Shown here: positions 3,059 through 63,454 of the stretch, in pieces
Layout: every line of letters starts with the position of its first letter
Position numbering within the stretch: position 1 is the stretch's first letter
Source: a virus
Strand: one strand, 5' to 3'
IMG/VR virus record: IMGVR_UViG_3300046517_000593
Location: 1 to 63,454 of that record
Length of the DNA stretch: 63,454 nt
Notes under the pieces: generated by a model
Seen by the model: only the letters and a program-made list of their open reading frames with translations
What the model was told of the DNA's origin: nothing
Database searches by the model: none
Program-made: the position numbers and the translations under genes

Positions 3059-4786
3059 TCATTCTGCAATCTTGCTCCTCTCCGTTATCTTCATACGCGC
3101 TCCGTCAAAATTACATTCCACGGTTAAACCTGTCGCTCCTCTTGTGTTTTTGAGAACCCGAATAATCAATGTCTCAGGTTCGGGGCGCCACATCCCAAGC
3201 ACCAACTGACTCGACTGCTCTATTGATCCCGAGTCCTTAGCGTCGTGGAGTCTGACTTCGATATCCTTTTTCTTTTTGTCTGGCCTGGCAACTTGAGAAC
3301 CCATAAAGCAAATCGTATTTGTTCGAACAGCCATAATTTTCATTTTTTCGGCTGCGTCGCTCACTTTTTCGTATCGACTTCTGCCCGATGATTCACTCAC
3401 AAGCCCGATGTAATCCACCTCGACAACTTTCGGCCGCATTCCAAATTTCAACTCGCTGCGATTAATATATTCCTCCATGCGCTCAACGCCGATGCCTGTT
3501 TCGTTGCACACGAGTATATGATGGTTCCCGCGATAATTAAGCCATCTTGGAGTCAAATCGCTTCGATAGGCCTGCTCTACTTCTTCTCCAGTTGAATTCG
3601 TTTCCATTTGAACGAATCTTTCGAACATTAATTCAATAGGTAATTCGAGTTCAAAAAACAAAGTAGGTAATGGCTTTGCAGCGCGAGCTATTGACTGTAG
3701 CAGACAACTTTTACCCTGCCCCGTATCTCCTATGATAGTCACCAATTCTCCTGGAATGAGCGACCGAATCTTTCCGAAGGAAGGAAATAATCTCCCCAAA
3801 TTAAACACATAAGTAGCTGCCTCTGGAGAATAGAATCGAATGGATGCCTCCTCCATTTCTTTGATGGTGTATATAGGAAGCGGCTTCAGAACATGAGCCA
3901 TTTTGCTAATCAAATCACGCAATGCCTTAGCCGCATCTTCTGGTTTCTGAAACGTCGCTATGAAATCGCTCGCATCTTTTCCTGTGGGAAGCGTCACGAC
4001 CTTAATCGAATTCGCCTTTGTCCCAAGCGATTCAACGACCATCTCAGCATGGTCACGTCCAGGCTTGTCATTATCCGGTATGATGATGATGTCTTTTTCA
4101 GCCAAAAAATCAGAGTAAGCCGACAACCATTTACCGGCGCCTCCGACATTGCAGGTCGCCACGAATCCGAGCGAAACGAGATTATCGCAATCCTTCTCCC
4201 CTTCACAAATAAAGCACTCCGTCGCATTCAGAACTTCCGGCAATCGGTAAAGGTATCTCGTTTGCCCTTCCATATTCCAAAGCCATCCATCATTCCCGTC
4301 CGGCCTACGCTGGCGAAAATCTTTTGGCTCAAGCCTGACAGTTTGATAAACTATGCGCCCTCGCTCGTCGGTATAATCGTAAGTCTTGACGATTTTCGGT
4401 TTGGTGTTTGGCGAAGGATTTGAACCTTCTTTTGGTGTCCTCAGCGTTCCTTCCGAGTTCCGGGCTTCGCGCCCTGCGCCAAACTTAATGGGATCATTTG
4501 ATCCATTTAATTTTTCTGCCAATTCTTTGTAAACCGACTTCGCATCACGCCCGCTCTCAATGGCCATCCAGTCGATTACGCTGCCGCCTGTCTCGCAATC
4601 ATTACACCTAAAAATCCCTTCGCTCACCTTAACGCTGACGCACCAGTGGTCTTTCCTGTGTTGGACTGCCGGGCACCGGTTTCCTTTAAGCTGGTCGCCA
4701 GCACCTCGAAGCTTAATCCCTTGCTGCTCCAGATGCCGAATCAGCGGATGAGCAGCTATGATTTGTTCGCGTGTTACTTCGCTCAT
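3059..4786 (-). CDS. bifunctional DNA primase/helicase (T7 gp4-like: CHC2 zinc finger, Toprim, DnaB-like ATPase)
   Basis: CPAVQHRKDHW...FRCNDCETGGSVIDW (CHC2). CEGEKDCD...IIIIPDNDKPGRDHA (Toprim). GDTGQGKSCLL (Walker A). VDYIGLV (Walker B-like). Confidence 0.85.
   Translation of the reverse strand: MSEVTREQIIAAHPLIRHLEQQGIKLRGAGDQLKGNRCPAVQHRKDHWCVSVKVSEGIFRCNDCETGGSVIDWMAIESGRDAKSVYKELAEKLNGSNDPIKFGAGREARNSEGTLRTPKEGSNPSPNTKPKIVKTYDYTDERGRIVYQTVRLEPKDFRQRRPDGNDGWLWNMEGQTRYLYRLPEVLNATECFICEGEKDCDNLVSLGFVATCNVGGAGKWLSAYSDFLAEKDIIIIPDNDKPGRDHAEMVVESLGTKANSIKVVTLPTGKDASDFIATFQKPEDAAKALRDLISKMAHVLKPLPIYTIKEMEEASIRFYSPEAATYVFNLGRLFPSFGKIRSLIPGELVTIIGDTGQGKSCLLQSIARAAKPLPTLFFELELPIELMFERFVQMETNSTGEEVEQAYRSDLTPRWLNYRGNHHILVCNETGIGVERMEEYINRSELKFGMRPKVVEVDYIGLVSESSGRSRYEKVSDAAEKMKIMAVRTNTICFMGSQVARPDKKKKDIEVRLHDAKDSGSIEQSSQLVLGMWRPEPETLIIRVLKNTRGATGLTVECNFDGARMKITERSKIAE
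4491..4504 (+). repeat. 14-bp palindrome GGATCATTTGATCC, copy 1 of 5
   Basis: Exact 14-mer inside the primase-helicase gene, read as G-S-N-D-P. Confidence 0.9.
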
Positions 4787-18768: not shown

Positions 18769-19229
18769 ACTTCTAGCGGTCGAAACACTCCGACTAATAA
18801 ATCGCGATACTGCCGGTCACTTAGCTCCGTCTCTATCGTTCCAAAATTCTGACGAGCTTGAATGAACTTATTCCCAATGGTCTTCACTCCGACATGATGC
18901 GAAACCCTGCCAGTTCTGAAAGTAAGCAAATCTCCAGGCAAAAACCCGAAACCAATATCGAGATTATCAACCCTCTTAAAAATTCCTTGCTCGATAATAG
19001 TTTGTTCAAGCAGAGAAGTGTTCAGTCTGCAACCTCCGTCCATCGTGTAATCAGGGAACCTGTCATCAATCAATAAACCGCAAGCCTGGTAAATCTCCGA
19101 AGCCAAATGCACGCAATCAACCCCGTATCCTCGCGCATGCGCGTGATGACAAAATGGAGTCCCAAGCCACAAGTAAGCCTCGTGAATCAGCTTCTCGATT
19201 CGTTCGCGTGTTGAAAAGAAGTGGATCAT
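18765..19229 (-). CDS. NlpC/P60-family tail protein (lambda K / GTA g14-like)
   Basis: YGVDCVHLASEIYQACG ... PGDLLTFRTGRVSHHVGV gives the Cys...His catalytic pattern. Confidence 0.7.
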   Translation of the reverse strand: MIHFFSTRERIEKLIHEAYLWLGTPFCHHAHARGYGVDCVHLASEIYQACGLLIDDRFPDYTMDGGCRLNTSLLEQTIIEQGIFKRVDNLDIGFGFLPGDLLTFRTGRVSHHVGVKTIGNKFIQARQNFGTIETELSDRQYRDLLVGVFRPLEV

Positions 19230-19236
19230 TTGATCC
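19223..19236 (+). repeat. 14-bp palindrome GGATCATTTGATCC, copy 2 of 5
   Basis: Within the 22-nt cassette 19219-19240. It carries the ATG of 18765..19229. Confidence 0.9.
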
Positions 19237-23670: not shown

Positions 23671-23901
23671 TTATATCTTTCCAGAGATCGGTGGCAATTT
23701 AGGAAATGCTTTCGCATCAATCACTACCGCCTTGCCGGTAAATCTATACACTTGCCCAAGATGACCTTCTTCACTTTCAACTATTTCATCCGTAGGTTCT
23801 AAATGTAGTGCGCATACATGATCTTTTTTACGTTCCCGAGAATCCGAAAGTTCATACCAATCAAGTCTTCCTTCTATTTTTATTACTATCCAATCATTCA
23901 T
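23671..23901 (-). CDS. hypothetical protein
   Basis: 76 aa with an ATGA overlap with the tape measure gene. Confidence 0.5.
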   Translation of the reverse strand: MNDWIVIKIEGRLDWYELSDSRERKKDHVCALHLEPTDEIVESEEGHLGQVYRFTGKAVVIDAKAFPKLPPISGKI

Positions 23902-37688: not shown

Positions 37689-38740
37689 TTTCTGAAATAC
37701 TCCAACATCACATCACCCCTCACTCGAATGTCATTCAGCGCGGACGGTGTAGTGCTCGTAATCCTAATGGCTACTGTATCACCAGCAGCCATCGAGTCCA
37801 CGGTCGTCAGAGACATGACCAACACTTCCGGAAAATTGAGAGTCCCTGGAACAGCTTTCGAACCGGTATTCGCAGTATCGTAAGACTCTGTATCAGCCGC
37901 AAGCGCATCGCCAGGAGTTTGGGCCCAAACGCTGATTGAAAATGAAGCGCTATTGGTGATTGCCCCTGAACACGAAAATGGAATCCTTAATTGCGGACTG
38001 CTCCCATAATCTTGCGGTAGCGTGAACTGAAAATAAGCTGTCTCGTTCGTCGCAAATGCTAGTCTCTTCAGTCCCGTAGTCGAAACATACTCCAGTCTTG
38101 CCGGACTCGTTGTGGGTAGCGTTACTTGCGAAATAGGAAGCCTCACTTGGGCCATCGACCTACCTTCAAGGGAACCTTTAATCCTGCTCCCGTCTTGGAA
38201 GAAATGATAGATACCAATTATTCCAGATACCTGCTCAAGCGGTGGCTGAGTCGAAGTTCCGCTGAAGGTCCAGTAAACGGTATTCGTAATCGTGAGCGTG
38301 AAAGCGCCCTGATTCGTAATCGTGAGGTTAATCGGATGACCATTAGACCAATTCGTTATTCCGAGAGTCAAGTTACCGGCCATTGTCCCTGTCCACTCTG
38401 AAGCAAGTGAAGCGTCGATGTTAATCGTCCCCTGATTCGTTCCGATATCCAAAGTTGGGTAAATACTATTCCCGATGAAAAACACGTTCGTCAGAGACAC
38501 GTTCGGGCCGATGGCAACATTCGTATTACCGGTTCCGGTTTGCGTGAACTGGTCTGAAAAATTGTAGGTCGTCCCTCCAATCAAACCCAATCCAGATAAA
38601 CCTGATAGCGGCACAACATCGCCGTTGCCATTCACGTAACTTCCGGGGTCGCCCGTGAAAGGGATTATTTGTTGCTGAGCGTTAACCGAAAGAGCAATCA
38701 ACGCTAAAGCAAAAACCAGAAGTTTTTTTAAGTGGATCAT
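37685..38740 (-). CDS. exported beta-rich protein with jelly-roll-like C-terminus
   Basis: MIHLKKLLVFALALIALSVNA-QQQ signal peptide. The start codon lies in the conserved 22-nt cassette. Confidence 0.65.
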   Translation of the reverse strand: MIHLKKLLVFALALIALSVNAQQQIIPFTGDPGSYVNGNGDVVPLSGLSGLGLIGGTTYNFSDQFTQTGTGNTNVAIGPNVSLTNVFFIGNSIYPTLDIGTNQGTINIDASLASEWTGTMAGNLTLGITNWSNGHPINLTITNQGAFTLTITNTVYWTFSGTSTQPPLEQVSGIIGIYHFFQDGSRIKGSLEGRSMAQVRLPISQVTLPTTSPARLEYVSTTGLKRLAFATNETAYFQFTLPQDYGSSPQLRIPFSCSGAITNSASFSISVWAQTPGDALAADTESYDTANTGSKAVPGTLNFPEVLVMSLTTVDSMAAGDTVAIRITSTTPSALNDIRVRGDVMLEYFRK

Positions 38741-38747
38741 TTGATCC
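38734..38747 (+). repeat. 14-bp palindrome GGATCATTTGATCC, copy 3 of 5
   Basis: Within the 22-nt cassette 38730-38751. It carries the ATG of 37685..38740. Confidence 0.9.
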
Positions 38748-38749
38748 CT

Positions 38750-39184
38750 TTATTTCACGAGAGCGTGAATGACGATGTTAGAGAGACACCCGTTTGTCGT
38801 TGGATTCTCAATCGATGAAAGCCTGAGATACTGATACCCCTGACAACCGATATTCGTCCAGCCTGTTACCTCGGTGGTATCGTTCAGCGTAAGCGGAAAT
38901 CTGAATCGCGCATCCTTGTAATACATCGAATCATTGATGCTCACGTCAAACACTAGTGTAATCGTGCCACCTCCAGGCGTAGCCGCATTTGTCCACGCAA
39001 CTCCAGTCCCACGAAAGAACAAGCTCACCTTATTAGCCGCAGCGAGCACTGGAATACTCGAACTCGCCGTCGTGTTCGTTTGAACCGGTGGAACCTTATT
39101 CGTCGAAAGCGTCAGAAGCGTCACCGTCTGAGCCGACGCACTCAATCCGAAAACCATCAACAAAAAACTGAGTATGAATTTCAT
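38750..39184 (-). CDS. exported small protein
   Basis: MKFILSFLLMVFGLSASA-QT signal peptide. Confidence 0.6.
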   Translation of the reverse strand: MKFILSFLLMVFGLSASAQTVTLLTLSTNKVPPVQTNTTASSSIPVLAAANKVSLFFRGTGVAWTNAATPGGGTITLVFDVSINDSMYYKDARFRFPLTLNDTTEVTGWTNIGCQGYQYLRLSSIENPTTNGCLSNIVIHALVK

Positions 39185-39264: not shown

Positions 39265-40242
39265 TTACGAAATAGTGAGCTGACGAACTCCGAGCGTGGA
39301 AGTCATTACCACGTCGCTATACATCTCAACAGTAATATCGATGTTCTTCATCGAAACTTGCTGTTCGTAAACACGCGTCTTGGTGCCGCCAATGGTTGCA
39401 GTCGTGAACCGCTTGATGTTGGACGGGTCGAACGGAGTTGCGTTCGGCTTCGTGAGGTAGACTAGCACCCGGTTGCCACCGAGAATTGAAGTCTTGGTTG
39501 AAGGGCCGGTCTGGTAATAGCTCCGAGCTACGTAGCCGCGTTGCAGACCACAGAACTGAGCAACCTGGTCAACCGCCTGACTTGCCGAAGCAAAGCCGCC
39601 TGCGGTATTCTGTGCGCGATGCGATACGATACGCTTGCTCCAAGCTGTAAGGTCATAAAGCACGTTGCTCGCTGGAACGCCCACGAGTGAATTGAATGTC
39701 ACAGCCTCGTTCATCACGTCTTGGTCCGGGTCTTTTCCGGCAGTCGTGTCCCATGTTTTAGCCGTGTTGGTCGCAGCCGCCGAAAGCAGCGTGATAGCGC
39801 GGCGAATTTCATTTCGCAGCAAGCGTTCCATCAAACGGGAAACAGTAAGCTCCCTCCAATTCGAGGACTGGTCCACATTGTCCATGTCCACTCGAACGGT
39901 CAGCCCCTTGTTCTTCGTGGTGCCGTTAGCCTTCGTGCTGGTGTATTCCACCCGCTTGAAGTCGGCTCCGATTGCTCGAATGTCGTCAGTCTCCGAAATG
40001 AAGGCCTCAATATTCGGGAAAGTCGCATATTCGAACCGGCGGCTCGTCGGAACTTCAGGTGCGAGAAAATCAAGCAACGCCTGAAGGTTCTCCTGGTCAG
40101 TCCAGCCGGTCGAGTAAGCCGTCAATGGCTCGCTGAAAAAAGCTTCAACGAATCGGCTGGAGGCATTCGCTGCGCATATCACGTCAGCAGCCTGTCTCCC
40201 CGTATCCTCCGGCATTTCATTTACAAAAGCGTGGTCATTCAT
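39265..40242 (-). CDS. major capsid protein (Mu gpT-like position)
   Basis: 325 aa from the ATG at 40242. It follows protease, scaffold and decoration genes. The A-rich leader is AAACAAAATAAAAAT. Confidence 0.6.
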   Translation of the reverse strand: MNDHAFVNEMPEDTGRQAADVICAANASSRFVEAFFSEPLTAYSTGWTDQENLQALLDFLAPEVPTSRRFEYATFPNIEAFISETDDIRAIGADFKRVEYTSTKANGTTKNKGLTVRVDMDNVDQSSNWRELTVSRLMERLLRNEIRRAITLLSAAATNTAKTWDTTAGKDPDQDVMNEAVTFNSLVGVPASNVLYDLTAWSKRIVSHRAQNTAGGFASASQAVDQVAQFCGLQRGYVARSYYQTGPSTKTSILGGNRVLVYLTKPNATPFDPSNIKRFTTATIGGTKTRVYEQQVSMKNIDITVEMYSDVVMTSTLGVRQLTIS

Positions 40243-40270
40243 ATTTTTATTTTGTTTCTGAATTTGCCGA

Positions 40271-40771
40271 TTACGCGAGAGGCGCAAACGCGAGGCACGG
40301 AGTAATTTCGATAACATCGCCAGTCGCCCCGGATGCCTTCAAGGCTTTCCCGACTACGTAACCAGTGGATACAGCCGTCTTAACAGTCCCGTCGCCGTTC
40401 GACTGAACAAAAGCGTCAACCGCTATCACCCCGGTAGCAATAACGCGCTGAGTGCCCTTTACCGCTCCAAGGACAGCGATACTAATCGGGTCTCCAAGCA
40501 AATCAGCCTGGTCTTGAGCGATGCCGATGATTTTATCTGTAGCGCCCGCACTGACGGCAACGTGGTTCTCATCGGAACCGGTCTTTACGAGGTGGTATCG
40601 CGTGATTGCCGCATCAGCCAAATAAGTAACATAACCATCACCATGAACACCCGCATTCGGAGAGTTCGCTGCATTGGCCATGTTGAGGACTTCTCCGCGC
40701 TTCCGGTAAGCAAGCCACGCGCAGGAGAAAATGGCCAGCAGGAGCACCGCTCCAAGCATTAGGTAATTCAT
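40271..40771 (-). CDS. head decoration protein (DUF2190-like) carrying a hydrophobic N-terminal leader
   Basis: Body YHLVKTG...IIGIAQD...GDPISIAVLGAVKG...GDGTVK...YVVGKALKASGATGDVIEI. The leader MNYLMLGAVLLLAIFSCAWLAYRKRGEVLN precedes MAN. Confidence 0.55.
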   Translation of the reverse strand: MNYLMLGAVLLLAIFSCAWLAYRKRGEVLNMANAANSPNAGVHGDGYVTYLADAAITRYHLVKTGSDENHVAVSAGATDKIIGIAQDQADLLGDPISIAVLGAVKGTQRVIATGVIAVDAFVQSNGDGTVKTAVSTGYVVGKALKASGATGDVIEITPCLAFAPLA

Positions 40772-41895: not shown

Positions 41896-42960
41896 TTAAG
41901 GCAGCACTGCTGCCAACTTTTCTCCGTGTGTCTTAGGATTCCTCATCTGAGCCATCGCCAAATCCCTAGAATACGGAGAAGTCGTATTTTGAATGTCGGA
42001 CATACCTGCCTGAGCCTCAGGATGAAACTGACTGTGAGGCGAATTGAGAATGGCTTGAAAATGACCACGAGCATCAGCATAAGCTTGCTGCGCCTGTTCA
42101 GGATTAGTATTCAAATCGTAGGCGCGAGCCGTTCGAAGTGAAGCATTCCCATTATCCAATCTTTTCTGAGCATCCTCAGCCGTCATCTCTGCTGACTCTT
42201 GAGTCGGTGATTCGGTCGCCTCCTCCGCCGGGTCTTCTCCGGCTTCACTCATTACGTTTCCGAAATGACGAAGCATGGCAACGGTCAAAAACCGCTTCTC
42301 GTTCACGCTCTGGTCAGCCGCGATTTTACCGCAGATTTTCTTAGCGCTATCCTCGTCATGTCCGCCTCCGGAATCAGTCTGCATGTAAGCTACGCAGCCA
42401 TCAAAACCACCTTTGAAACTTCCATCCGAATTTTTATAATCGGACTCATTTGCCGTGGTTACTGGCGGAACTGGTATGTTTGGCTCATTCGTGAAACCGA
42501 CCGACTTGAGCTTGAACGGACGCCAAACACCTTTTGCATTCGGGTCTTCCTTCAGGAACCAGTTTACCGAATGACCATGAAAAGCTTCATCTGAAATCAG
42601 CTTCTCGCCCTCTGCCCCAAATCTCACCCCGGCCCAAAGACCATCGTTACGAGCTTCGAGCGTCTTAATGCGCCCGTAAGCTTTTCCGTCCTTGTAACGG
42701 TCGCTGAAAGCAGGGTGGTCGGGATGACCGATAAAAAATGGTAGACCAATCGTTTTGTGCGCGATGTTCGTGATAGAATTGAAGCTCTGAACAATGTTAT
42801 CAGCATCTTGTTTTTGGATCCTTTGAAGACCTTGCTGATTCGGCCAATCACCGAACGGACTGAGCATCACCCAGCGAAGCTTAGTCGCCTCGTTAGGAGC
42901 CGAAAACTCATTTACAAACAGGATTGAAGGAAACTCGATTGTGCCAATCACGACGCACAA
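41896..42960 (-). CDS. Mu gpI-like head maturation protease
   Basis: RWVMLSPFGDWPN...DADNIVQSFN...GLPFFIGHPDH...AYGRIKTLEARNDGLWAGVRF resembles Mu-like prophage I proteins. The start is uncertain (TTG at 42960 or GTG at 42951). Confidence 0.55.
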   Translation of the reverse strand: MCVVIGTIEFPSILFVNEFSAPNEATKLRWVMLSPFGDWPNQQGLQRIQKQDADNIVQSFNSITNIAHKTIGLPFFIGHPDHPAFSDRYKDGKAYGRIKTLEARNDGLWAGVRFGAEGEKLISDEAFHGHSVNWFLKEDPNAKGVWRPFKLKSVGFTNEPNIPVPPVTTANESDYKNSDGSFKGGFDGCVAYMQTDSGGGHDEDSAKKICGKIAADQSVNEKRFLTVAMLRHFGNVMSEAGEDPAEEATESPTQESAEMTAEDAQKRLDNGNASLRTARAYDLNTNPEQAQQAYADARGHFQAILNSPHSQFHPEAQAGMSDIQNTTSPYSRDLAMAQMRNPKTHGEKLAAVLP

Positions 42961-48558: not shown

Positions 48559-50310
48559 TCATCTTTCGACATGTCGAGCCGTATTCAGCCCGGACGTTAA
48601 CCCGTTAATTGCCATCGTCGCAATAATTTCTCTCAATGCCTGACCATTGGCTGGACTCTTATTGATGGTCTTGAGCATTGAAGGAAGCTTATCTTTCAAA
48701 TCCAAGAGCGCGGCTTGCATTTGTTCCGCGTTGCTCATCTCTGATATTGCAAGCACGCGCTCTCGCAGTGGTCGCACTGCCAGGGAAGTGTCTTTCGCGA
48801 GCCTCACCATCGCGTTCCTCAAAAATACTTTCGACTGAGCGATAGCATTCGCTGTATTGAGCGAAGCTGTAGTCGCTGAAATATCCAAAGCTCCCTTGGC
48901 TCCGAAAGTATCCTGCCCTTGTTGTCCAGTAGGAGGTGGAGTAGCCGTCGGTTCGCCTTCCTGAGCTTCAACTCGATTGTATCGCTCCAGCATATCCTCA
49001 ATTCCAAGCTTCGCACCGCATTGCAAAAGAAATTGGTCAATCTCAATCTCAAGCTGAACATCCTTCTTCTTTGGAATATTCAATTTGACGTAAGCTTTCG
49101 GAGTTGTGGAAGGTCCGAAATGCCACTTCAAAACCGGAATATCCACGTAATGATTGAGCGTTTCGGAAATGATTTGACCGTAGTGCTGTTCAATCATTTC
49201 GGCCTCTTCACCCTGCAAACTCGCTCCTCGACCACCCGAAGACCCTCCACCATGAGACGAGATGGTTGACAAGTCGGCACCTCTCGCCAGAGCGCAAATC
49301 GCTCTGTCCATGTAATCCACTAACGGCTCATACGGAAGTTGACCTGTTGAGCCAAAATCAATCTTCTCAATCTTGTCGTTCACGCTCGCGATGATTGCGC
49401 TGTTCGGACCTACATTTGAGAGCACATCCTGAAGCGCATTCCAGCCGGCTGAACCTTGAGCGTGATTCGTGAGCCCAATCGGCACCGGCATACCATTGCG
49501 CTCATTGTAAATCAACCAATCACGTATCGCGATGGTTTTATACATCCAGGCTACGGATACGGCTTCCATGATGCCCTCGCCTACTGTAACCATCCATTGC
49601 CCATCGCGAAGCGGTTCCCCATCCCATTGGTAATTACCAGCAAACCTGAGCGAACCAGTGCGATTCTCGAAGAACCAGAGCGGCACGAAAATGAATTTGG
49701 CAGTCAACAAATCGCTACCCCTTGGATCAAGAATCATCTCGTGAACCGCATACTTCTTTGGACCAGCATCCATCATTTGATGAATCAATGAATGGAATCC
49801 ACCTATCTGATTGCGGTCTACAGCGTTCGTGCACTGAAGATTCGAATAGAAATACCTGAGAGCCTCGCTGTGAGCCTGAGCTTCAGCCTGGTCAGCACCT
49901 TCTACCTCGACAATCTCATACTCCCTACGACTCACCGTCATCTTGAGCTTGCCAAGCACTGACTTGCTTACAGCATCGCGATTCTCGATTGCATCCATCG
50001 TGAGACTAAACGAACGCATCGTTCCAGTGGCCCACTCACTAAGCTGCTGAGTAAGTGACTCGGGAGTAAGGAATGAAATCGGATTAAATCGGCTCTGCTT
50101 ATACTGGTAGACAGAAAATGGAGTAATCAGCGAATCGGTCTGCGATACCTGCTGGACATCAGGCTTGCCGAGCCTAGCTGCTACCGCTTCAGGAGGAGGG
50201 CTGAACTGACCACCGATGAGGCTATTAACCGGAGTAGACGGAATCGCATTAGCGACCGCACCTCCAGACTCATTTTCATTAGCCACGTCGCAAGCTGTTA
50301 CGACAAGCAA
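48559..50310 (-). CDS. portal protein (Mu gp29 / DUF935-like)
   Basis: 583 aa, downstream of the terminase. The start is uncertain (TTG at 50310). Confidence 0.6.
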   Translation of the reverse strand: MLVVTACDVANENESGGAVANAIPSTPVNSLIGGQFSPPPEAVAARLGKPDVQQVSQTDSLITPFSVYQYKQSRFNPISFLTPESLTQQLSEWATGTMRSFSLTMDAIENRDAVSKSVLGKLKMTVSRREYEIVEVEGADQAEAQAHSEALRYFYSNLQCTNAVDRNQIGGFHSLIHQMMDAGPKKYAVHEMILDPRGSDLLTAKFIFVPLWFFENRTGSLRFAGNYQWDGEPLRDGQWMVTVGEGIMEAVSVAWMYKTIAIRDWLIYNERNGMPVPIGLTNHAQGSAGWNALQDVLSNVGPNSAIIASVNDKIEKIDFGSTGQLPYEPLVDYMDRAICALARGADLSTISSHGGGSSGGRGASLQGEEAEMIEQHYGQIISETLNHYVDIPVLKWHFGPSTTPKAYVKLNIPKKKDVQLEIEIDQFLLQCGAKLGIEDMLERYNRVEAQEGEPTATPPPTGQQGQDTFGAKGALDISATTASLNTANAIAQSKVFLRNAMVRLAKDTSLAVRPLRERVLAISEMSNAEQMQAALLDLKDKLPSMLKTINKSPANGQALREIIATMAINGLTSGLNTARHVER

Positions 50311-50331: not shown

Positions 50332-50763
50332 TTATTTTCCAGAAGACTTAATAAGTGATGATTTGCCAGTTCCGACGAATATGTAATCTGAATAATTTCC
50401 ATTCGGCTTATGACCTTTGATCACGCACTCCGTATAAGGCTTCATCTTGCCACCGATATTTATCCAGGTTCTTACCGACTGCTTTTCGAACTGTTCCCGC
50501 GAAAAATAAAAATCCCATATTGCCCGACTATCGTCTGGAATATATTCATATCCTTCGATATCAACCGAGCCGTCCGCATTCGTGATAAAGTTCCAACCAT
50601 TGTGGAATTCAAGATGAGTGATTCCGTTATTCGTCACGGTTAAGTAGATCATTTGATCCCTTTCTTTTTCAACCTTCTTAGCTTCCAGGATTCTTACGAA
50701 AACCAGAAGCGCAATAAAATACGAAGACCAAATCGAAAATAGAATCATTTTACGCTTGCTCAT
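50332..50763 (-). CDS. N-terminally anchored protein, unknown function
   Basis: Start at the ATG at 50763 (MSKRKMILFSIWSSYFIALLVFVRIL). The internal Met (MIYLTV...) sits in the conserved cassette at 50642-50663. Confidence 0.5.
   Translation of the reverse strand: MSKRKMILFSIWSSYFIALLVFVRILEAKKVEKERDQMIYLTVTNNGITHLEFHNGWNFITNADGSVDIEGYEYIPDDSRAIWDFYFSREQFEKQSVRTWINIGGKMKPYTECVIKGHKPNGNYSDYIFVGTGKSSLIKSSGK
50646..50659 (+). repeat. 14-bp palindrome variant AGATCATTTGATCC, copy 4 of 5
   Basis: One mismatch. Within cassette 50642-50663. It carries an internal in-frame ATG of 50332..50763. Confidence 0.85.
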
Positions 50764-51472: not shown

Positions 51473-52915
51473 TCATAAGACCCTCCTTGAATACCTCGGC
51501 ATGCCATATTCACGCCGGTCGATTGCTTCAACTCGTGTAGCCATCACATTCGTATTACCAGACAAATATTTATAAGCACTGCTCACACCGTCAACACAAT
51601 CGTCATGGTCGCTGCCAGGAAACTGGTCGCACTGGTCAAAGAAGTCGCCATTCCAATCCGCACGCACACAAAATATCAATCCATCCTGCATCCGGCTACC
51701 CCAAAGGCTTGCTCGCATCTCTTTATTACCTTCGGGGATATCCTCGAATATTACGTGCTGCTGTAGCTCTGGATGAACCTTCAAATCCTGGTAGTAACCT
51801 TTCTGTGGTCCGTTGCTCTCGATTGTCATTATGACTTTTGTTCCGTCTTGGTGCGCCGTTGAGATAATCTCGCGCTTACCATCCGGCCATTTACCTTGCC
51901 GCCTCTTGACGTGCAGAATGTAGTAATTCCCTTTCCCATCCATGCCCACCTTCGCGCCAGCCAAATAATCCGCTGACTGCTTGTCAGAGAAAGCCAAATC
52001 CCAAGCCCTGACTATTTGAACAAGCTCAGGCACTGAGTCGGCATCAATCATCACAAACTTGGAACTATCCAAAACATTGCCTTCATCCGGTCGAGGGCGC
52101 CCTTGATATTTCGCAGCAAATGCTTTTGAGCCGACACCCTTCTTAATCCCGTCTAAAGCTTCGAGCGGATATTTCTCAGGCCAGAGAGCTTCACCTTGCT
52201 CGGAGATAGCTGGCATGTGAAGCGTTTCCCACTTCTCGCCGTCTCCAGCCTCTGAAGCCTGCATCAATCTTCCGGCCAAATCCTCGGAGTGCCATCGCGA
52301 CATGATGAGCACGATTGCACCATTCGGGTCCAGCCTATCTCTGAGTGTCTGCTTATACCAATCCCATACCGCATCACGACGCACCTTGGAATTAGCCTCA
52401 ACATTGTCTGCTATTGGGTCATCAATAATTATCAGATTTGCCCCACGGCCAGTCGGGGCCGCTCCAACGCCTAAAGCACGCATCGTGGACCGATAAGCGC
52501 CTAGAAGTGCCCAATCCTGCGTGCTGCTGAAATCTTGGTTGACCTCCACGTTCGGGAACAGTTCTCGATAACGATTATTACCAATGATGCAATCCCGGAC
52601 ATTCCTGCTGAAACCTAAAGCGAGATTCCCGCTGTGGCTGGTTAGGATGACTGAATCTTTTGGATGGCGGCTGAGATACCACGTCGGGAATTTCTCGGAA
52701 CAAAGGGAACTCTTCCAATGACGTGGAGGACAGGTTACAAAGAGCCGCTTAATCTCACCTCGTTCGACTGCCTCCAGTTTCTCAGAAATCCTCCGAAGAT
52801 GCTCAGCCTCGTAATTCTGAGCCGCATTCGGGTCTATATAGCACGAGAACTCAGTAAGATAATTGCGAGCGTGATTAACCCGAATGGCTCTCGCCATTTG
52901 AATCGCCTGCTCCAT
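51473..52915 (-). CDS. terL: terminase large subunit
   Basis: CPPRHWKSS (P-loop-like), IIIDDPIAD, nuclease-domain WDLAFSDKQSADY ... SDHDDCVDG. The start is uncertain (ATG at 52915 or 52897, TTG at 52948). Confidence 0.8.
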   Translation of the reverse strand: MEQAIQMARAIRVNHARNYLTEFSCYIDPNAAQNYEAEHLRRISEKLEAVERGEIKRLFVTCPPRHWKSSLCSEKFPTWYLSRHPKDSVILTSHSGNLALGFSRNVRDCIIGNNRYRELFPNVEVNQDFSSTQDWALLGAYRSTMRALGVGAAPTGRGANLIIIDDPIADNVEANSKVRRDAVWDWYKQTLRDRLDPNGAIVLIMSRWHSEDLAGRLMQASEAGDGEKWETLHMPAISEQGEALWPEKYPLEALDGIKKGVGSKAFAAKYQGRPRPDEGNVLDSSKFVMIDADSVPELVQIVRAWDLAFSDKQSADYLAGAKVGMDGKGNYYILHVKRRQGKWPDGKREIISTAHQDGTKVIMTIESNGPQKGYYQDLKVHPELQQHVIFEDIPEGNKEMRASLWGSRMQDGLIFCVRADWNGDFFDQCDQFPGSDHDDCVDGVSSAYKYLSGNTNVMATRVEAIDRREYGMPRYSRRVL

Positions 52916-53393
52916 TGGAAGCGCCGTTATGTCCGATTCTGTTTTCAAGTAACTCTAACATCTTCCTTCCGGCTTCCCGGCTCAATGGTTTTTCTATCGT
53001 GAAAGTCTCGCTCTGGATAGGACCGCCTTCAGGCCCGCTGATTTGCTGGACTCTCGGAGCATCCAATCCCAGAAGCTCATCAATCCTTTGCCGGGCGCGC
53101 AATCGGGCGCCTGGGCTAGCCTTGCCTCCTGGTGCTGCGATGGCTTGGTAGAATGCGAATGAATCTTTTCTGTGCTGGTCTTTATTCTGGCCAAACTGCT
53201 TGCGGATGGCATCCTTCGCACGAGAGATATATTCTTCGCATTGGCGGGCTGTGATGCCATATTTAGCAAGGATAACGCGTTTAATTTGACCTTTTAGGAC
53301 ACCTTGACTGAGCAAAGATTGGACAAGCTCGATACGTTCCTCGATTTGTTCGTAAGTAGCTTTACGGAAAGGCTTGATGTCTTTGCGTTTCAT
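52875..53393 (-). CDS. terminase small subunit candidate
   Basis: 172 aa directly upstream of TerL. HTH-like ILAKYGITARQCEEYISRAK. Confidence 0.5.
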   Translation of the reverse strand: MKRKDIKPFRKATYEQIEERIELVQSLLSQGVLKGQIKRVILAKYGITARQCEEYISRAKDAIRKQFGQNKDQHRKDSFAFYQAIAAPGGKASPGARLRARQRIDELLGLDAPRVQQISGPEGGPIQSETFTIEKPLSREAGRKMLELLENRIGHNGASNGAGDSNGESHSG

Positions 53394-54277
53394 TTCTTGA
53401 GCAAAGCTTTGATTGCTGGACTGCGAATGGGTTTTACTTGGATGAGTTTAAGACCGTAATCATTCGGCTTTATTGCCTTCAAATCTATTCCAGGCTTCAA
53501 GATGAGTTGATTATCGAATCTTTTCCAAGAATCTTTTACGATATGCTGAGCGCGTTTGAAACGTCTACCTACTTTTACGACTCCAGGCCATACCCGTTCA
53601 AGTGAACGAGCCATTTTGGTTCTGCCGTCCGCTTTGTAAAGCTGGTCTGAGTTGCCGCCTTTCATAGACATCGTTTGCATCTTTTCGATGAGAAAAGCAT
53701 TGACTGAAATAGTGCACAACCCTCTTGAGAGGGCCTGCAAACACAAATCGGTATCTTCATTATACCTACCGCGCCAGCGAAACGGTAAATCATTTTGAAT
53801 AAGTAAGCAGGAATAAACTCTTGAATTGAGATAAAATGGTGGGGTTTGTCTGCCGTTCGTTATGAATGCGAACATAGAATAATTGAGTCAAGCTATCGCC
53901 ACATTTTCATATCTATCGATAAGCGATTCGACGGCAGCGAAAGCATTCCCTGATTTACACTTGATACGATAGCCAAAATATCGGCGTTTTATGCTCCGAA
54001 TATTATCATCGAGAATCCAATGCCTTGAATGCCCTTCAGATTTAGCATGCTCCCAGACCCAATTACGCGCCGGTATACTACCTTGTCCAAGATTACTGAA
54101 TGGGAGAATTAGCAATCGATCTTTCCCTACGATAGGAGCATATTCGGATTCTTCCTGTGGCTCTATTGCGATTTGAAATGGAACTTCATCCTTAATCAAG
54201 AATCTAGCCGTTAGAAGATTCTTAGCCCTACCTTTGGAGATTATATAAACCGGATATTTTGGAAGGGTAAATTTCAT
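53390..54277 (-). pseudogene. GT-A-like glycosyltransferase gene interrupted by a single in-frame TGA (halves 53888..54277 and 53390..53875)
   Basis: Both ORFs are in the same frame. Sequence reads ...GTG GCG ATA GCT TGA CTC AAT TAT TCT ATG TTC... Motifs YIISKGR, WILDDN (DxD-like) and NEDTDLCL. Confidence 0.45.
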
Positions 54278-54924
54278 CCTGAAAATTGCACTGATGAAGG
54301 ATCATCTTTTTCTTTAGAAGGCCACCAAGTTGACCATCTATCGTTGTCCTCTGGAACTTTCAATCCAACGCGCTTAGCGAATGCTGCTCTATCTTTCCTA
54401 TTCCGGAAAAGAACGTAAATTTTAAGTGCCTTTTCATCTGAACCAAATTCCGGCATCCCAGCCCAATGGGCGGCTTCATCGAAGTCTTTTATTTCACTCT
54501 CCGGCCTTGTTACCATCGCAAGGGCTGCCAACATCTGCGCGTCATAGCCAGTCCCAAGAAGTCCATCTGCATCTTCGTTTAGCTCCTTGAGTATTTCCGT
54601 TAATGCTCTGTCATTTACTTCGATAAGGTGGCCGACTTCATTATCTCCAGCGAGCACCTTCAAGGCCGAAGGAGAATCAGCCTCAATATTTAGTCGAATC
54701 ACCGGAACGAATTTCATCTCCATCTTTTGCGCCGCTGCAACTACTCCATGACCGGCGAGAATCGTGAAATCTTTGGCCGTGACGATATTGCGATAGAAAC
54801 CATTTTTCTTGATGCTATGAATCAAATGTTCGAGCTGGTCAGCAGGATGCTCTCGATAATTGCGAGGATGCGGCTTGAGCTTTCCTATCGCAATCGACTC
54901 TACTTTTAGCTTTGCTTGTTTCAT
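54274..54924 (-). CDS. ParB-like nuclease-domain protein
   Basis: IAIGKLKPHPRNYREHP...LIHSIKKNGF...ILAGHGVVAAA. Confidence 0.65.
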   Translation of the reverse strand: MKQAKLKVESIAIGKLKPHPRNYREHPADQLEHLIHSIKKNGFYRNIVTAKDFTILAGHGVVAAAQKMEMKFVPVIRLNIEADSPSALKVLAGDNEVGHLIEVNDRALTEILKELNEDADGLLGTGYDAQMLAALAMVTRPESEIKDFDEAAHWAGMPEFGSDEKALKIYVLFRNRKDRAAFAKRVGLKVPEDNDRWSTWWPSKEKDDPSSVQFSG

Positions 54925-55913
54925 TACACCAATTCTGGAATCAATTCATTCAACACTGTCAACGGCAATTCTTCCTGCGCGTGTTTTTTATTCGATGCGT
55001 CATGAATGTTTTTTGCTGCCTGCCGATAGTAGCTCGGCTTTAGCTCGATTCCAATAGCTAATCGTCCAAGAACTATAGACTCATGAACCTCTGAGCCTAC
55101 TCCCATAAATGGAGTAACTACTACTTCGCCAGGATTTGACCACAGCGTAATTATTCGGTCGATAACGTCGAGTTGCAGCGGATGAATATGTTTCTCATCT
55201 TCCGAATCTCGCGCTGCTTCAAACGGAAGCACGCGACCGATTCGGATATCGTCCCAAAATGCACTCGCATATTGTCGCCAAATCCAATGCGAATACCGAT
55301 TCTGAATCTGATTGCCAGTCCAGCCTTTATATTGCTGAAGCTCATGCGGTATCTGGCGTTCACCGGCGTATTCCATCAATCCGTTTGGATGCGCTATCGG
55401 AACTTTATTCTCACCTTTTTTCCTGAAAACGACCACGTAGTCAGCAGATGCAACGGAACACCTCGAAGAATCATCAACAATAGTCTTGTGAGCCAAATTC
55501 TTTGCCATCGTTCGATTGCGAACTGCCAGCGGCTCTTTCCAGACCGCGTATCTCCCGATGAATTCAAACTTGTGCTTTTCGTGTAATCGAATGATATCAC
55601 CAGGGAAATCAACGAGATGGTCTATGCCGCAATTACCAGATGGCACATCCATACAATGCACTGCTGTAATTCTGCCTGGCATTGTAAGGCGAGAAATTTC
55701 CTTCACAACGAAAGCGTAATGCTCGAAAAACTTTCCATAATCCAAACAGTTCGATAAGTCCCGCTCGCTGGAGCTATAGCAATACAGACCTCCGAACGGA
55801 GGAGAATATATCGAAAGATGAACTGATTTGTCTGGAAACTTTTGAAGAACCTCACAGCAGTCTCCATTGTATATCGCATACCGCTCTTTAATTTCTTGTT
55901 CGATTATAGCCAT
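54924..55913 (-). CDS. DNA methyltransferase (N4/N6 beta class)
   Basis: Motif IV is SIYSPPFGG (SPPF). Motif I is VVTPFMGVGSE. Confidence 0.75.
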   Translation of the reverse strand: MAIIEQEIKERYAIYNGDCCEVLQKFPDKSVHLSIYSPPFGGLYCYSSSERDLSNCLDYGKFFEHYAFVVKEISRLTMPGRITAVHCMDVPSGNCGIDHLVDFPGDIIRLHEKHKFEFIGRYAVWKEPLAVRNRTMAKNLAHKTIVDDSSRCSVASADYVVVFRKKGENKVPIAHPNGLMEYAGERQIPHELQQYKGWTGNQIQNRYSHWIWRQYASAFWDDIRIGRVLPFEAARDSEDEKHIHPLQLDVIDRIITLWSNPGEVVVTPFMGVGSEVHESIVLGRLAIGIELKPSYYRQAAKNIHDASNKKHAQEELPLTVLNELIPELV

Positions 55914-57271
55914 GCTGGCACTCTTTCTTTTTTCTTGAATTTTACTCCCCTACTTATACCCATTGAATCATTCATTTGCGCTACTAAATCCGAAAACATT
56001 TTATCAGCGGCAGCACTCTTACGCTTGAGATTTCTCAGCACTGACTTCTCTCCTTCGGTCGTAACGATATCAACTCGCACTTCACGCTTCTGACCGAACC
56101 TCCAGCAACGTCTTACCCCTTGATAATATTGCTCAAAACTATGAGATGGGAAAGATGTTACGTGAGCGCAATGTTGGAAATTCAATCCCCAAGCTCCAAT
56201 CTTAGGCTTGGTAACTAAGACTCGCGTCTGGCCTTTGGCGAATCGCGTAAACTTTTCTTCCTTCACTTCATCTGAATCGCTACCGCTCACCTGCTCGGAG
56301 TCAGAAATCAATTTCTCCAACAAGTCACCCTCCGGGTTTAGATGGCACCAAACTAATGCAGGATCTCCAGTATCCTTCACCAATTCCATAATACGATTAC
56401 ATCGCTCCTCAATCGTTCGTCTGCGTTCTTCGCGCTGCTCATTGAGTCCTACTGCCTCCAATGCGAAAAGCATATCTGGAGCTAACCTCGAAGCCTTAAC
56501 GCAATGTTCCTGCTCTACAAGCGGTGGCAATTTGAAGTCGCTATCATCAAATCCTAAATCAGAAGGCTTTCGAATCGCCCTCGACCACGAACATACCCAC
56601 TTCCAAAACGACTTCTCGGCATGTCCTTTGAATCTCCATTGCGCTCCATCCCAATTCCTATTCACATGCGAAGAATTTTGGTCATTCTTAAAGAACCTCT
56701 GAAGCATGTCCATATATCCTAGCTCTCCAAGAGCCTCGCTGCTTGTTCCCAGCTCGATATAGTCATTCGGAGCCGCTGTAGCTGTGCAGAGCAGTCGATA
56801 AGCAATACAACGAATGAATTCGGTTACCTGTTGACGAGTAGTTCCATCAAACGCTTTAAGCCGGGAACTTTCATCGGCAACGACTGCGACAAAATCTTCA
56901 GGCTTTAACAAATGCAACCGCTCATAGTTCGTCACATTTATACCAGTGAATAATTCTCCATTGATTGACCGCCTAACTTCGATTCCAAACTTCTGACCTT
57001 CATCCACTGTCTGATGCGCGACTGCCAGTGGTGTCAGTATCAACACTCTTTTTCCGGTCTTGCGAACGATGTTTTCAGCCCATACTAATTGTTGTGGAGT
57101 TTTGCCAAGACCGCAGTCCTCAAATAACGCAGCCTTCCCTTTCTCCTGCGACCAGCCGACTAGCTTTTTTTGAAATCCAAACAGGAAGTCCGGCATCCAA
57201 ACCGGTTCAAATCCCGATTTAGTTCCAATCTGCGACTTATTCCGAATAAACTCCTCGTAACCGTTTTTCAT
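55904..57271 (-). CDS. DEAD/SNF2-like helicase
   Basis: DCGLGKTPQ (Walker A), VVADESSRLK (DExx), C-terminal QYYQGVRRCWRFGQKREV. Confidence 0.7.
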   Translation of the reverse strand: MKNGYEEFIRNKSQIGTKSGFEPVWMPDFLFGFQKKLVGWSQEKGKAALFEDCGLGKTPQQLVWAENIVRKTGKRVLILTPLAVAHQTVDEGQKFGIEVRRSINGELFTGINVTNYERLHLLKPEDFVAVVADESSRLKAFDGTTRQQVTEFIRCIAYRLLCTATAAPNDYIELGTSSEALGELGYMDMLQRFFKNDQNSSHVNRNWDGAQWRFKGHAEKSFWKWVCSWSRAIRKPSDLGFDDSDFKLPPLVEQEHCVKASRLAPDMLFALEAVGLNEQREERRRTIEERCNRIMELVKDTGDPALVWCHLNPEGDLLEKLISDSEQVSGSDSDEVKEEKFTRFAKGQTRVLVTKPKIGAWGLNFQHCAHVTSFPSHSFEQYYQGVRRCWRFGQKREVRVDIVTTEGEKSVLRNLKRKSAAADKMFSDLVAQMNDSMGISRGVKFKKKERVPAWL

Positions 57272-57795
57272 GCCTTAAAACACTTCCTTCCTCGCGGAAT
57301 AGCTCCAGGCAAATGCGACCACGTGTAACCACTCATCGCAGCCCACAAAGCGAACTTAGATAGACATGGATTCTCTCGGCAAATCACCGATAGCGACTTA
57401 TGCACGTAATCCTCTCGAAGTCTCAGCACCATCGCCTCGGTCATTCGCGCTGCTGGATTTTTAATCCCTTTGGATGAACCGTGAAGCCTCTTATCCTGAC
57501 CGTTCTCAGTGGCTGTTCCCCAAGCTAAATTAGCGGGTAGATTTACTGTCCTTCGGCCATTCAAATGCCTTGCTTGCGCTCCGGCTGGCCGTGGTCCTTT
57601 CCAAGCTAGCAGCACCGCATGATGAATCTTTATTTCAGGCCTCGAGACTTTCAAATAGCCATCCTTGTCCGGTGCCGATCGAAGTATCTTCATGCAACCT
57701 TGCCTCATGGAAAGAATCCGGCCGTCGCGAGACACGAATCTGTCATCATTGGGAATCTTCCTGAAGATACCTCGCTCAAACCGAATCGTTTTCAT
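57268..57795 (-). CDS. HNH homing-type endonuclease (NUMOD4/HNH_3-like)
   Basis: RFVSRDGRILS...DKDGYLKV...IHHAVLLAW...ARHLNGRRTVNLPANLAWGTATEN. Confidence 0.7.
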   Translation of the reverse strand: MKTIRFERGIFRKIPNDDRFVSRDGRILSMRQGCMKILRSAPDKDGYLKVSRPEIKIHHAVLLAWKGPRPAGAQARHLNGRRTVNLPANLAWGTATENGQDKRLHGSSKGIKNPAARMTEAMVLRLREDYVHKSLSVICRENPCLSKFALWAAMSGYTWSHLPGAIPRGRKCFKA

Positions 57796-58634
57796 GCGAG
57801 CACGCGCCGAACCAGCGTCAAAAACTCTTCAACCATTACACCGACATTGACAGTCTCGTTGTATTTGTCACCAGGCCATTTCTCCTCGATAGCCAATATT
57901 AATTCGTGCCGAGGACTGATTACAGGATTCGCGATACCGGCCTTCTCCTGCTCGCGCTTCGCAAACTCGCGGGCTTCTTTCGCAATCTGCTCGCCGTCCT
58001 GCTTCACGTTGTCGATGTAAGCATTGTATTGGATTGCCTCAACGGATTTTTTCTTTCGGTCATTCGCCAATCCGCCTCGCGGTTTTCTCATTTCCAACGT
58101 CTGTTTATTCTTCGGAAGCTTCGCAATCTTCGCCGCCCGACTCACCGCGATGCTCCCTTTCAACACAGCTTTATTGAGAGCCTTGTTCCCTTTGTCCTTC
58201 ACAATTTTTGCGCGCTTGACCGATGGCTCCGATACGTTCGCAGCTTTCGCGGCTTCGGCGATTGTGGAAAGTGGATCATTTGATCCCTTTCTCCCTTTCT
58301 TATTCGTCACGAATTCCGCTGCCAATCGGGCACGTTGTGAATCGTCGAGATGCCGACGGTGAAGATTGAGGCTTGCAACAAGCGCGTGCGGGTCGCCACT
58401 CATCACACTCTCAAATTGCATTTTTACTTTGGCCTTCTTGCAGGCCAGATACCGATTCCTGCCGTCAATGATTTGACCTTCGAACAAAAGTATCGGCTCG
58501 TGCAATCCGTGTGCGCGAATGTCCTTCGAGAGTTCTTCCAGCTTATCCGGCTCCAGCACCGGGAAGAGTTCGGAGAGTGGATGGAACTTTAGTTTACCTG
58601 TCGGGAATGCTTTTGTTTTTATGTTAGTGCTCAT
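57792..58634 (-). CDS. ParB/KorB-like DNA-binding protein (ParB N-domain plus HTH)
   Basis: LHEPILLFEGQIIDGRNRYLACK. HTH-like STIAEAAKAANVSEPSVKRAKIV. Contains one copy of the 14-bp palindrome. Confidence 0.65.
   Translation of the reverse strand: MSTNIKTKAFPTGKLKFHPLSELFPVLEPDKLEELSKDIRAHGLHEPILLFEGQIIDGRNRYLACKKAKVKMQFESVMSGDPHALVASLNLHRRHLDDSQRARLAAEFVTNKKGRKGSNDPLSTIAEAAKAANVSEPSVKRAKIVKDKGNKALNKAVLKGSIAVSRAAKIAKLPKNKQTLEMRKPRGGLANDRKKKSVEAIQYNAYIDNVKQDGEQIAKEAREFAKREQEKAGIANPVISPRHELILAIEEKWPGDKYNETVNVGVMVEEFLTLVRRVLA
58273..58286 (+). repeat. 14-bp palindrome GGATCATTTGATCC, copy 5 of 5
   Basis: Within cassette 58269-58290 inside the ParB/HTH gene, read as G-S-N-D-P. Confidence 0.9.
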
Positions 58635-63327: not shown

Positions 63328-63454
63328 CATTTTTTATCGCGTTCCTCGATATTCGCCATGCCATGCAAATACCTAATCCACCTCTCGCCGATAACCAATG
63401 GTTCTTTGAGTTCCATTATTGGGTCTTCCAGATAACCACCAGTCTCTCGAAGGC
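63328..63454. repeat. Terminal direct repeat, exact copy of 1..127
   Basis: Same 127-nt string as the window start. Confidence 0.95.

Follow-up and report, generated by a model that had tools for sequence, protein, structure and literature searches.

ParB-parS, Noc-NBS and KorB-OB are the closest mechanistic relatives of the sites described here, and sites of this family are palindromes of 13-16 bp. A parS site is located within spo0J. In the phage-plasmid N15, scattered sopC-like inverted repeats within phage genes are bound by SopB, and the phage has SopA (ParA) and exists as a plasmid prophage. In the temperate mycobacteriophage L5 the immunity repressor binds stoperators, which are asymmetric 13-mers. 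In this work a viral DNA of 63,454 nucleotides (IMG/VR record IMGVR_UViG_3300046517_000593, positions 1 to 63,454), hereafter the window, was analyzed for a 14-bp palindrome present in five copies, one of which lies inside gene 57792-58634 for a ParB-like protein with a helix-turn-helix (HTH). Based on homology and covariation, the palindromes are most likely docking sites of this phage-encoded protein.

The window resembles the ParB, Noc and KorB systems in the fold of its protein, which matches theirs over the N-terminal domain and HTH. As with parS in spo0J, one copy is found inside the protein's own gene, and as with the Noc NBS and KorB OB sites, multiple copies are dispersed. Unlike ParABS, the window has neither ParA nor an N-terminal ParA-binding motif, and its genome looks lytic; unlike canonical ParB, the protein has the box II sequence G-R-N-R-Y-L-A. 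It differs from all three systems in that the in-gene site is fixed, family-wide, at the linker between N-terminal domain and HTH, and in that the module is often fused to adenine methyltransferases. N15 shares with the window a small number of inverted repeats scattered among phage genes and a ParB-family protein, but no ParA or plasmid prophage lifestyle was seen in the window. The L5 stoperators are also short, dispersed, oriented with respect to transcription and often at gene junctions, and in L5 are bound by one phage protein; the window site, in contrast, is palindromic with a ParB-like protein as its candidate binder, and the open reading frames (ORFs) scanned included no lysogeny genes.

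The specificity of ParB maps to its recognition helix (Jalal et al. 2020, as cited in PMC12704722). The closest phenomenological precedent, a likeness of kind with unrelated sequences, is provided by Cluster O mycobacteriophages (Corndog), which carry more than 30 17-bp dyad repeats, TGTTCGG-NNN-CCGAACA, reported to be of unknown function and not linked by the authors to the ParB-like gp90 (PMC4351075). In both cases inverted arms (in Corndog invariant and of 7 bp) surround an A/T spacer (AAA/TTT in Corndog), copies are located between genes, near gene starts and inside genes, and the phage has no parA and is not obviously temperate. Corndog gp90 consists of a ParB-like N-terminal domain with box II G-Q-R-R and an HTH (V-S-S-E-K-V-K-H-A-K), and three of the repeats flank the gp90-gp91 operon (L211, 53500-57000); gp90 is a candidate binder of them. 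Unlike the window with its five copies, Corndog has more than 30, none of them inside gp90, and gp90 is only remotely similar to the window protein (hhalign E = 0.003). An incomplete literature search returned no intragenic cognate palindrome described for phage ParB-HTH or ParB-methyltransferase proteins. Dispersed sites of ParB-family proteins are known in kind; the family-wide in-gene palindrome appears to be new, the novelty being provisional.

Five palindromes in the window

The palindromes and the gene of their predicted binder are the following:

57792..58634, minus strand: 280-amino-acid ParB/Noc/KorB-fold protein, predicted palindrome binder
58273..58286, minus strand: palindrome, family-typical intragenic site; ParB_N+HTH gene, read G-S-N-D-P, linker between N-terminal domain and HTH
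50646..50659, minus strand: palindrome with one mismatch; gene just upstream of the portal gene, probably read D-Q-M-I-Y
38734..38747, minus strand: palindrome; boundary of a 144-amino-acid gene (38750-39184) and a gene for a 351-amino-acid secreted protein (37685-38740)
19223..19236, minus strand: palindrome; junction of an 88-amino-acid gene (19226-19492) and an NlpC/P60 tail-associated gene (18765-19229)
4491..4504, minus strand: palindrome; primase-helicase (3059-4786), read G-S-N-D-P, variable linker between zinc finger and Toprim

On the plus strand GGATCATTTGATCC was identified exactly at 4491, 19223, 38734 and 58273, and AGATCATTTGATCC at 50646 is the copy with one mismatch (coding strand GGATCAAATGATCT). 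The motif of the coding strand is GGATCAAATGATCC, flanked by AAAG...ACTT in four of the five copies; at 4491 the flanks are AAT/ATT in place of AAG/CTT. Allowing up to two mismatches on both strands, the genome gave nine matches, including exact sites which score again on the opposite strand, versus 0.70 expected, and none of 100 shuffles reached this count. Nine extra matches at three mismatches are about the expectation (~7.4), which means that there are exactly five sites with no degenerate halo. Around the circle they are spaced by 7.6, 11.9, 19.5, 14.7 and 9.5 kb. A preliminary description of this DNA had reported four exact copies and one with a mismatch, roughly 8-20 kb apart and beyond chance for a 14-mer, all of which agrees with these counts. 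Its fixed orientation applies to the window, where the AA centre always points one way, but not to related phages, which use the perfectly symmetric GGATCAATTGATCC.

The reading G-S-N-D-P was indeed seen in two unrelated genes, the primase-helicase and the ParB-like gene; in the latter the copy is at nucleotide 349. The ATG of the motif is the start codon at 19223, where it forms an ATGA stop/start overlap, and at 38734 only. For the 50646 gene a candidate start at 50763, 37 codons upstream, adds a transmembrane helix. Since the upstream in-frame sequence encodes this helix, and is in frame in the close relative described below as well, the 50646 copy is very probably within the coding sequence, between the transmembrane helix and the globular part. 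Of three copies previously described as a Shine-Dalgarno sequence with ATG, two do supply the start and the third is probably intragenic; A-rich leaders with no Shine-Dalgarno sequence precede most genes of the phage, and a Shine-Dalgarno cassette was rejected as the nature of the motif.

The ParB-like protein

Pfam ParB_N scored 22.4 bits on the 57792-58634 protein, under the cut-off of 26.3. The profile of its family matches solved ParB, Spo0J and Noc over the N-terminal domain and HTH (E ~1e-6), with an alignment running through the HTH ('vsersvkrArkv' versus 'gkerstVanALrLL' of ParB). When the AlphaFold model was used in Foldseek, the 32 best hits were all Spo0J, ParB, Noc, KorB or pNOB8 ParB. 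The predicted local distance difference test (pLDDT) score of the model is 75.5; the N-terminal domain is confident and the HTH reaches 90-95, while linker residues 114-116 fall below 50 exactly at the motif, and the linker is not conserved in homologs. A long C-terminal helix (189-231) and two more helices are predicted to follow, with pLDDT of 53-76 and no Pfam match. Based on profile and model, the protein is assigned to the ParB/Noc/KorB superfamily, with a ParB/Srx-type N-terminal fold and a ParB-aligned HTH; the recognition helix is V-S-E-P-S-V-K-R-A-K at residues 134-143. In the nucleotide pocket, conservation extends to box I (GLxxPI) and box III (N-L-x-R). Among the phage ParB folds described in the literature some bind CTP, some ATP and some neither (PMC12704722).

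Homologs of the first ~165 residues occur as many standalone phage proteins and as N-terminal modules in phage methyltransferases of the MT-A70, Dam (PF05869) and N6_N4 families. The gene itself lies within a module of helicase, methyltransferase, ParB_N and glycosyltransferase genes. Just after the HTH domain the protein has the motif P-R-G-G-L-A-N-D (residues 189-196, 58047-58070). In the form P-R-G-G-L-A-(A/N)-D it is common to the standalone ParB-HTH proteins of phages with dispersed sites (P0242, P0249, P0253, P0259) and is C-terminal in the shorter members; it faintly resembles the ParA-interaction peptide LG(R/K)GL, at the other protein end.

An in-gene palindrome across the family

Three homolog loci were fetched first by protein similarity alone (L008, L009, L010), and 80 IMG/VR loci (L011-L090) were then added from the more than 570 relatives in that database. 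In 63 of 84 relatives' loci the DNA of the linker between N-terminal domain and HTH contains a perfect palindrome whose arms span at least 7 bp, the longest palindromes totalling 26 bp; among control segments of the same length from the same loci, 5% do so. Arms of at least 8 bp were present in 47 of the 84 and of at least 11 bp in 29, the longest being 13 bp. The mean maximum arm was 8.25 bp, versus 4.27 bp after synonymous recoding, with p <=0.05 in 57 of 85 loci (the 84 and the window), so that the encoded peptides do not account for the length of the palindromes. The same core is also read in different frames across homologs: GCAAATTTGC encodes A-Q-I-C or A-N-L, CCAATTGG is read P-I-G and GATCAATTGATC S-I-D. 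L009 and L010 each have a perfect palindrome of 16-18 bp at ~293-321 of the gene, and in L027 a second copy is located just upstream of the gene. The suspicion that the copy inside 57792-58634 is meaningful is thus substantiated by the 63 relatives with a palindrome in the same linker.

Dispersed multiple copies were observed solely in the lineage of the window, in L008, in L014 and perhaps in L004, all with standalone ParB-HTH proteins. L008, an independent phage whose protein is 47% identical and has the helix G-P-T-L-K-R-A, contains four exact dispersed copies of GGATCAATTGATCC within 20 kb, which are perfect palindromes in coding-sequence tails and intergenic DNA. L014 has two copies of GGATCACATGATCC. 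In L004 (58% portal identity, ParB-HTH protein 46% identical) GGTTGC-N4-GCAACC was identified twice and once with one mismatch (2851, 13812, 11276), one copy preceding the real start of the ParB-HTH gene by ~60 nt; these may be a dispersed site set of its own and are statistically marginal. As a control only, IMG/VR was scanned for GGATCAATTGATCC, giving at least 120 single occurrences, apparently by chance; none of the matches listed had a second copy or a ParB-HTH gene.

Recognition helix and half-site

The half-sites and the recognition helices with which they occur are:

GGCAAA: helix V-R-(S/H)-A
GCGCAAA: helix V-Q-(H/N/Y)-A
TGCAAA: helix V-A-x-A
CGCCAA: helix V-(E/Q)-R-A
GATCAA: helix P-S-V-K-R-A (window EPSVKRA, L071 TPSVKRA, L026 VPSVKRA, L008 GPTLKRA, L014 GTIKRA)

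L071 and L026, with P-S-V-K-R-A, carry GATCAATTGATC in the linker of the gene. After dereplication to 54 lineages, and using only pairs with less than 65% identity in the N-terminal domain, helix identity was higher by 0.17 in pairs which share a half-site (permutation p = 0.0005). No such effect was seen for the N-terminal domain (-0.01) or for the segments on either side of the helix (+0.02, p ~0.1). Covariation confined to the recognition helix is what would be expected of a helix that reads the palindrome. The pairings make chemical sense, with R for GGCAAA, A for TGCAAA and K-R for GATCAA. If the helix code is true, V-R-S-A would favour GGCAAATTTGCC and V-Q-H-A GCGCAAATTTGCGC. The proposal that the palindromes form a dispersed site set for a ParB-like HTH protein is strengthened by the linker palindrome of the family, by this covariation and by the dispersal in L008 with the same type of helix.

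Candidates for another binder or cutter are the HNH endonuclease (57268-57795), making T5-like nicks or packaging cuts, a small ribbon-helix-helix or HTH protein, and a host protein or GATC-directed system. The HNH gene directly follows the ParB-like gene, and dispersed motifs on the same strand are a signature of phage nick sites (T5, phiKMV). GATC is also four-fold depleted in the window (60 observed versus 243 expected), which strongly avoids it yet keeps the ten within the five palindromes. L008, however, is not depleted (141 observed versus 73 expected), and the paired GATCs stressed in the preliminary description turn out to be a by-product of the half-site class, since other members use GCAAATTTGC, CCAATTGG and other cores. 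Moreover, the class of palindrome follows the ParB-HTH recognition helix across the 54 lineages, L008, L014 and L071 were retrieved by ParB-HTH homology only, and the replication initiator has its own, different iterons at 5477-5560. We regard such an alternative as very improbable. The second ParB-like protein, 54274-54924, had also been named as a possible binder; it has no HTH and is part of a DNA-modification cassette, and is therefore not a candidate.

Conservation in a close relative

The closest relative is represented by two contigs of Logan sample SRR29078260, L001 (primase 68% identical) and L003 (portal 78% identical). At 68-78% protein identity, the motif is kept at three corresponding places, exactly at two and with one mismatch at the third. 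The exact copy at L003:11257 is the counterpart of 38734; in L003, because of an 11-nt indel, the real start lies 20 nt downstream and the motif is intergenic. L003:2739, an exact GGATCAAATGATCC, is the counterpart of 50646, and the DNA just upstream is unalignable. L001:1230 (AGATCAAATGATCC) lies in the same primase linker as in the window but ~50 nt away and is read K-R-S-N-D-P; this linker is otherwise unalignable with the window. The flanks of the motif differ between the two genomes. Because the motif is kept while flanks, frame, start-codon use and position shift, selection acts at the nucleotide level, as the preliminary description had argued against conservation of the protein, and the motif would most simply be a double-stranded DNA site. 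In both one-mismatch variants (window 50646 and L001) the altered base is the outermost one of a half-site, the two differing in which half-site is affected, and in half-site terms the substitution is G to A in each. The same substitution on either arm points to the tolerance of a dimeric DNA binder.

These comparisons bear on an RNA element, that is, a hairpin which sequesters the start codon (5-bp stem, AAAU loop, and an AAG/CUU extension past a bulged A) and would act as a translation-initiation cassette or operator which gene conversion had spread. Two copies do supply a start codon, the window copies fold somewhat better than shuffles (z -1.3 to -3.0), and the 4491 copy has compensatory flanks, AAT/ATT for AAG/CTT. 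Three of the five copies, however, are within coding sequences in two different frames, the L003:11257 copy is intergenic and not used as a start, and most genes of the phage have no Shine-Dalgarno sequence. The 50646 variant keeps a G:U pair, but that of L001 breaks the stem or closing pair (-2.8 kcal/mol, z = -0.4). In L008 the motif is perfectly palindromic and lies in the tails of coding sequences and between genes, and covariation with a protein recognition helix would not be expected of an RNA element, for which we see hardly any likelihood.

The idea that the motif marks recombination boundaries ('linker sequence') was rejected, as the identities of the genes flanking the sites had no consistent mosaic break. 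In L001 the primase-helicase is followed by a DDE transposase at 3534-4763 (IS1/IS240-like, weak Pfam hits) which is not present in the window, and there is no synteny between the two on either side of the primase gene. No multi-copy palindromes were found in L002 or in the portal relatives L005, L006 and L007 (45-58% identity); dispersal is thus not a general trait of the phage group. Searches of IMG/VR for close relatives with one 22-mer, matched exactly, and with the ParB-like and portal proteins gave no match, and a search of phage GenBank with a 4.7-kb segment gave no cultured relative. The ParB-like protein has two cultured relatives, both remote, the better being in Acidovorax phage AP1 (35%).

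Proposed role of the palindromes

The palindromes are conserved DNA elements, and those of the family covary with the recognition helix. Taken as a whole, the observations are probably best explained if the five palindromes are cognate sites of the 57792-58634 protein, one of them in its own gene, from which we infer clamp loading and self-marking. In the proposed mechanism a dimer would read both GGATCA half-sites with the HTH recognition helix E-P-S-V-K-R-A. The site in its own gene would occupy DNA coding for a flexible linker, an arrangement common to the whole protein family, so that protein and site would move together as a unit. The remaining four would be accommodated every 8-20 kb where coding constraint is low, in inter-domain linkers and at gene junctions. 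The protein would load at these sites as a nucleoside triphosphate (NTP)-gated clamp and spread along the phage chromosome, five sites covering 63 kb, and spreading would mark phage DNA as self for the neighbouring DNA-modification enzymes. The ranges over which ParB spreads are compatible with the spacing of 8-20 kb, which favours a clamp, and so does a site that can move within the primase linker, consistent with 'a site somewhere here'. The genes of the modification cassette (53390-55913) are:

54274-54924, minus strand: ParB_N-only protein, without HTH
54924-55913, minus strand: N6_N4 methyltransferase
53888-54277 and 53390-53875, minus strand: TET-associated glycosyltransferase (TAGT, PF20691), split into two ORFs

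Phage ParB-fold proteins are fused to or neighbour methyltransferases, glycosyltransferases and dioxygenases (PMC13229309, PMC12704722), and a phage ParB activates a DNA-modifying dioxygenase on double-stranded DNA (PMC13229309). The reading as a clamp that serves modification is preferred because of this activity, because the module is fused to three methyltransferase families and because the gene lies in a modification module. The cassette of the window looks similar to the ParB-dependent 5mYOX systems; unlike the window protein, the 5mYOX-activating ParB has no DNA-binding domain (PMC13229309). No TET/JBP dioxygenase was found among the ORFs scanned, and no cognate DNA site of phage methyltransferase fusions is described in the literature searched.

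The effect of binding may instead be regulation. The same ParB-like protein would then use the palindromes as operators or roadblocks, in the manner of KorB-OB or the mycobacteriophage stoperators, the site in its own gene being autoregulatory and the other four throttling read-through of the long transcription units, which all run on one strand, where modules meet (at the primase-helicase, the head genes, the genes that follow the capsid gene, and the tail tip). KorB, a clamp of the ParB family, silences genes (PMC11790492), the co-directional, tightly packed genes of the window make control of elongation plausible, and the sites are at or near module borders in a constant orientation to transcription, which suits a roadblock. 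The second copy just upstream of the gene in L027 and the L004 palindrome ~60 nt upstream of the real start are of the same tendency. On the other side, the family sites are mostly perfectly symmetric and single, no promoter association is demonstrable, methyltransferase fusion is left unexplained beyond autoregulation, and the shift of the primase-linker site in the relative fits 'a site somewhere here' over a positioned operator. We consider regulation unlikely to be the main effect, though well above the RNA and other-binder alternatives.

A centromere-like function had also been suggested. No ORF of the KGGxGK[ST] type (ParA Walker A) is present in any frame of the window, no ParA was found among the 47 distinct window proteins scanned (37 against Pfam and 20 against PHROGs, 10 common to both), and the N-terminus of the 57792-58634 protein reads MSTNIKTKAFPTGKLKFHPL and has no ParA-stimulating peptide LG(R/K)GL. 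Integrase, repressor, protelomerase, plasmid functions and a lysogeny module were likewise not found among the ORFs scanned, which covered the small ORFs in part. As there is neither ParA nor a ParA-binding peptide, a segregation centromere appears unlikely.

Several observations weigh against cognate sites of the ParB-like protein or against the clamp. Of 61 relatives, 58 have no second copy of the in-gene palindrome within +-10 kb, which makes dispersal a lineage peculiarity, and the in-gene copy is missing from L008 and L004. Arms of 11-13 bp exceed a ParB-type footprint, and their outer bases vary in close homologs yet stay complementary, e.g., GAAAATGCGCAAATTTGCGCATTTTC versus GAAGATGCGCAAATTTGCGCATCTTC in the L011-L090 linkers; such long variable arms may have a hairpin or cruciform role or may result from template-switch homogenisation. 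A symmetric dimer explains neither the single orientation of the asymmetric AA centre in all five window copies nor the shared flanks, which add three base pairs past a one-base bulge. Protein and in-gene site are physically linked, so that shared ancestry could inflate the covariation; the controls with flanking segments and N-terminal domain argue against this effect but do not remove it. Box II, D-G-R-N-R-Y-L-A, is non-canonical versus G-E-R-R-x-R-A and retains only one arginine of the pair. The sample of the close relative (SRR29078260) yielded no ortholog of the ParB-like protein, and the link to DNA modification is one of context only.

Genome organization

An identical 127-bp overlap at both termini (1-127 and 63328-63454) indicates a circularly closed assembly, the genome having a true length of 63,327 bp with every gene encoded on the minus strand. 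The phage is siphovirus-like and its genome looks like that of a lytic phage. The genes assigned, besides those given above, are:

3059-4786, minus strand: primase-helicase
5153-5965, minus strand: HTH_36/DnaD-like (DnaD_N-like) initiator
23898-26837, minus strand: tape measure protein
39265-40317, minus strand: major capsid protein
41896-42960, minus strand: protease
48559-50310, minus strand: Mu gp29-type portal
51473-52948, minus strand: large terminase
57268-57795, minus strand: HNH endonuclease, directly after the ParB-like gene

In addition, two SNF2-type helicases are encoded, and no RNA polymerase was found among the window proteins scanned against Pfam and PHROGs. The host is likely to belong to the Planctomycetota-Verrucomicrobiota-Chlamydiota (PVC) group, since distant portal homologs are named from Kiritimatiellae and Puniceicoccales.

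Four tandem iterons of 22/23 bp, TGTCAACGTGGTTGACA(CCCCC), are located at 5477-5560 inside the initiator gene, beside an AT-rich stretch, and are a putative lambda-like replication origin embedded in that gene. The palindromes were rejected as a replication origin, the origin being elsewhere, at these iterons. GTAC is nearly missing from the window (2 observed versus 243 expected) and CTAG is ~four-fold depleted (64 observed). The GTAC depletion is common to the close relative (L001/L003), in which GATC is ~two-fold low in L001 and less so in L003; more distant relatives share neither the GTAC nor the GATC depletion. Tetramer depletion is probably a sign that restriction by a specific host is avoided. 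At 9729-9950 there is a periodic 6/18-nt repeat, GCTCCNGCTCC..., with several 12-mers in at least seven copies, in an ORF (9723-9995, minus strand) whose product is a low-complexity Gly/Ala-rich repeat protein.

Implications for phage ParB-fold proteins

Two recent surveys of ParB-fold domains, which occur commonly in phages and often as fusions to methyltransferases, name no DNA target for them (PMC12704722, PMC13229309). The family gains a concrete target in the form of a palindrome at a fixed position of the gene, with a readable code between helix and half-site, and the window, L008 and L014 are natural cases in which the site was multiplied. More tentatively, and in our opinion with the odds against it, the in-gene loading site could be a cis-acting self-address throughout the phage ParB-fold family, standalone or fused to adenine methyltransferases. 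The protein would clamp and spread on phage DNA alone, so that promiscuous modifying enzymes act on the virus but spare the host chromosome, and the address would be present five-fold here in order to cover 63 kb. If the sites are loading points of an NTP-gated clamp, this would explain how modification or coating is confined to the phage chromosome. A candidate explanation is thereby offered for the unexplained dyad repeats of the Cluster O mycobacteriophages.

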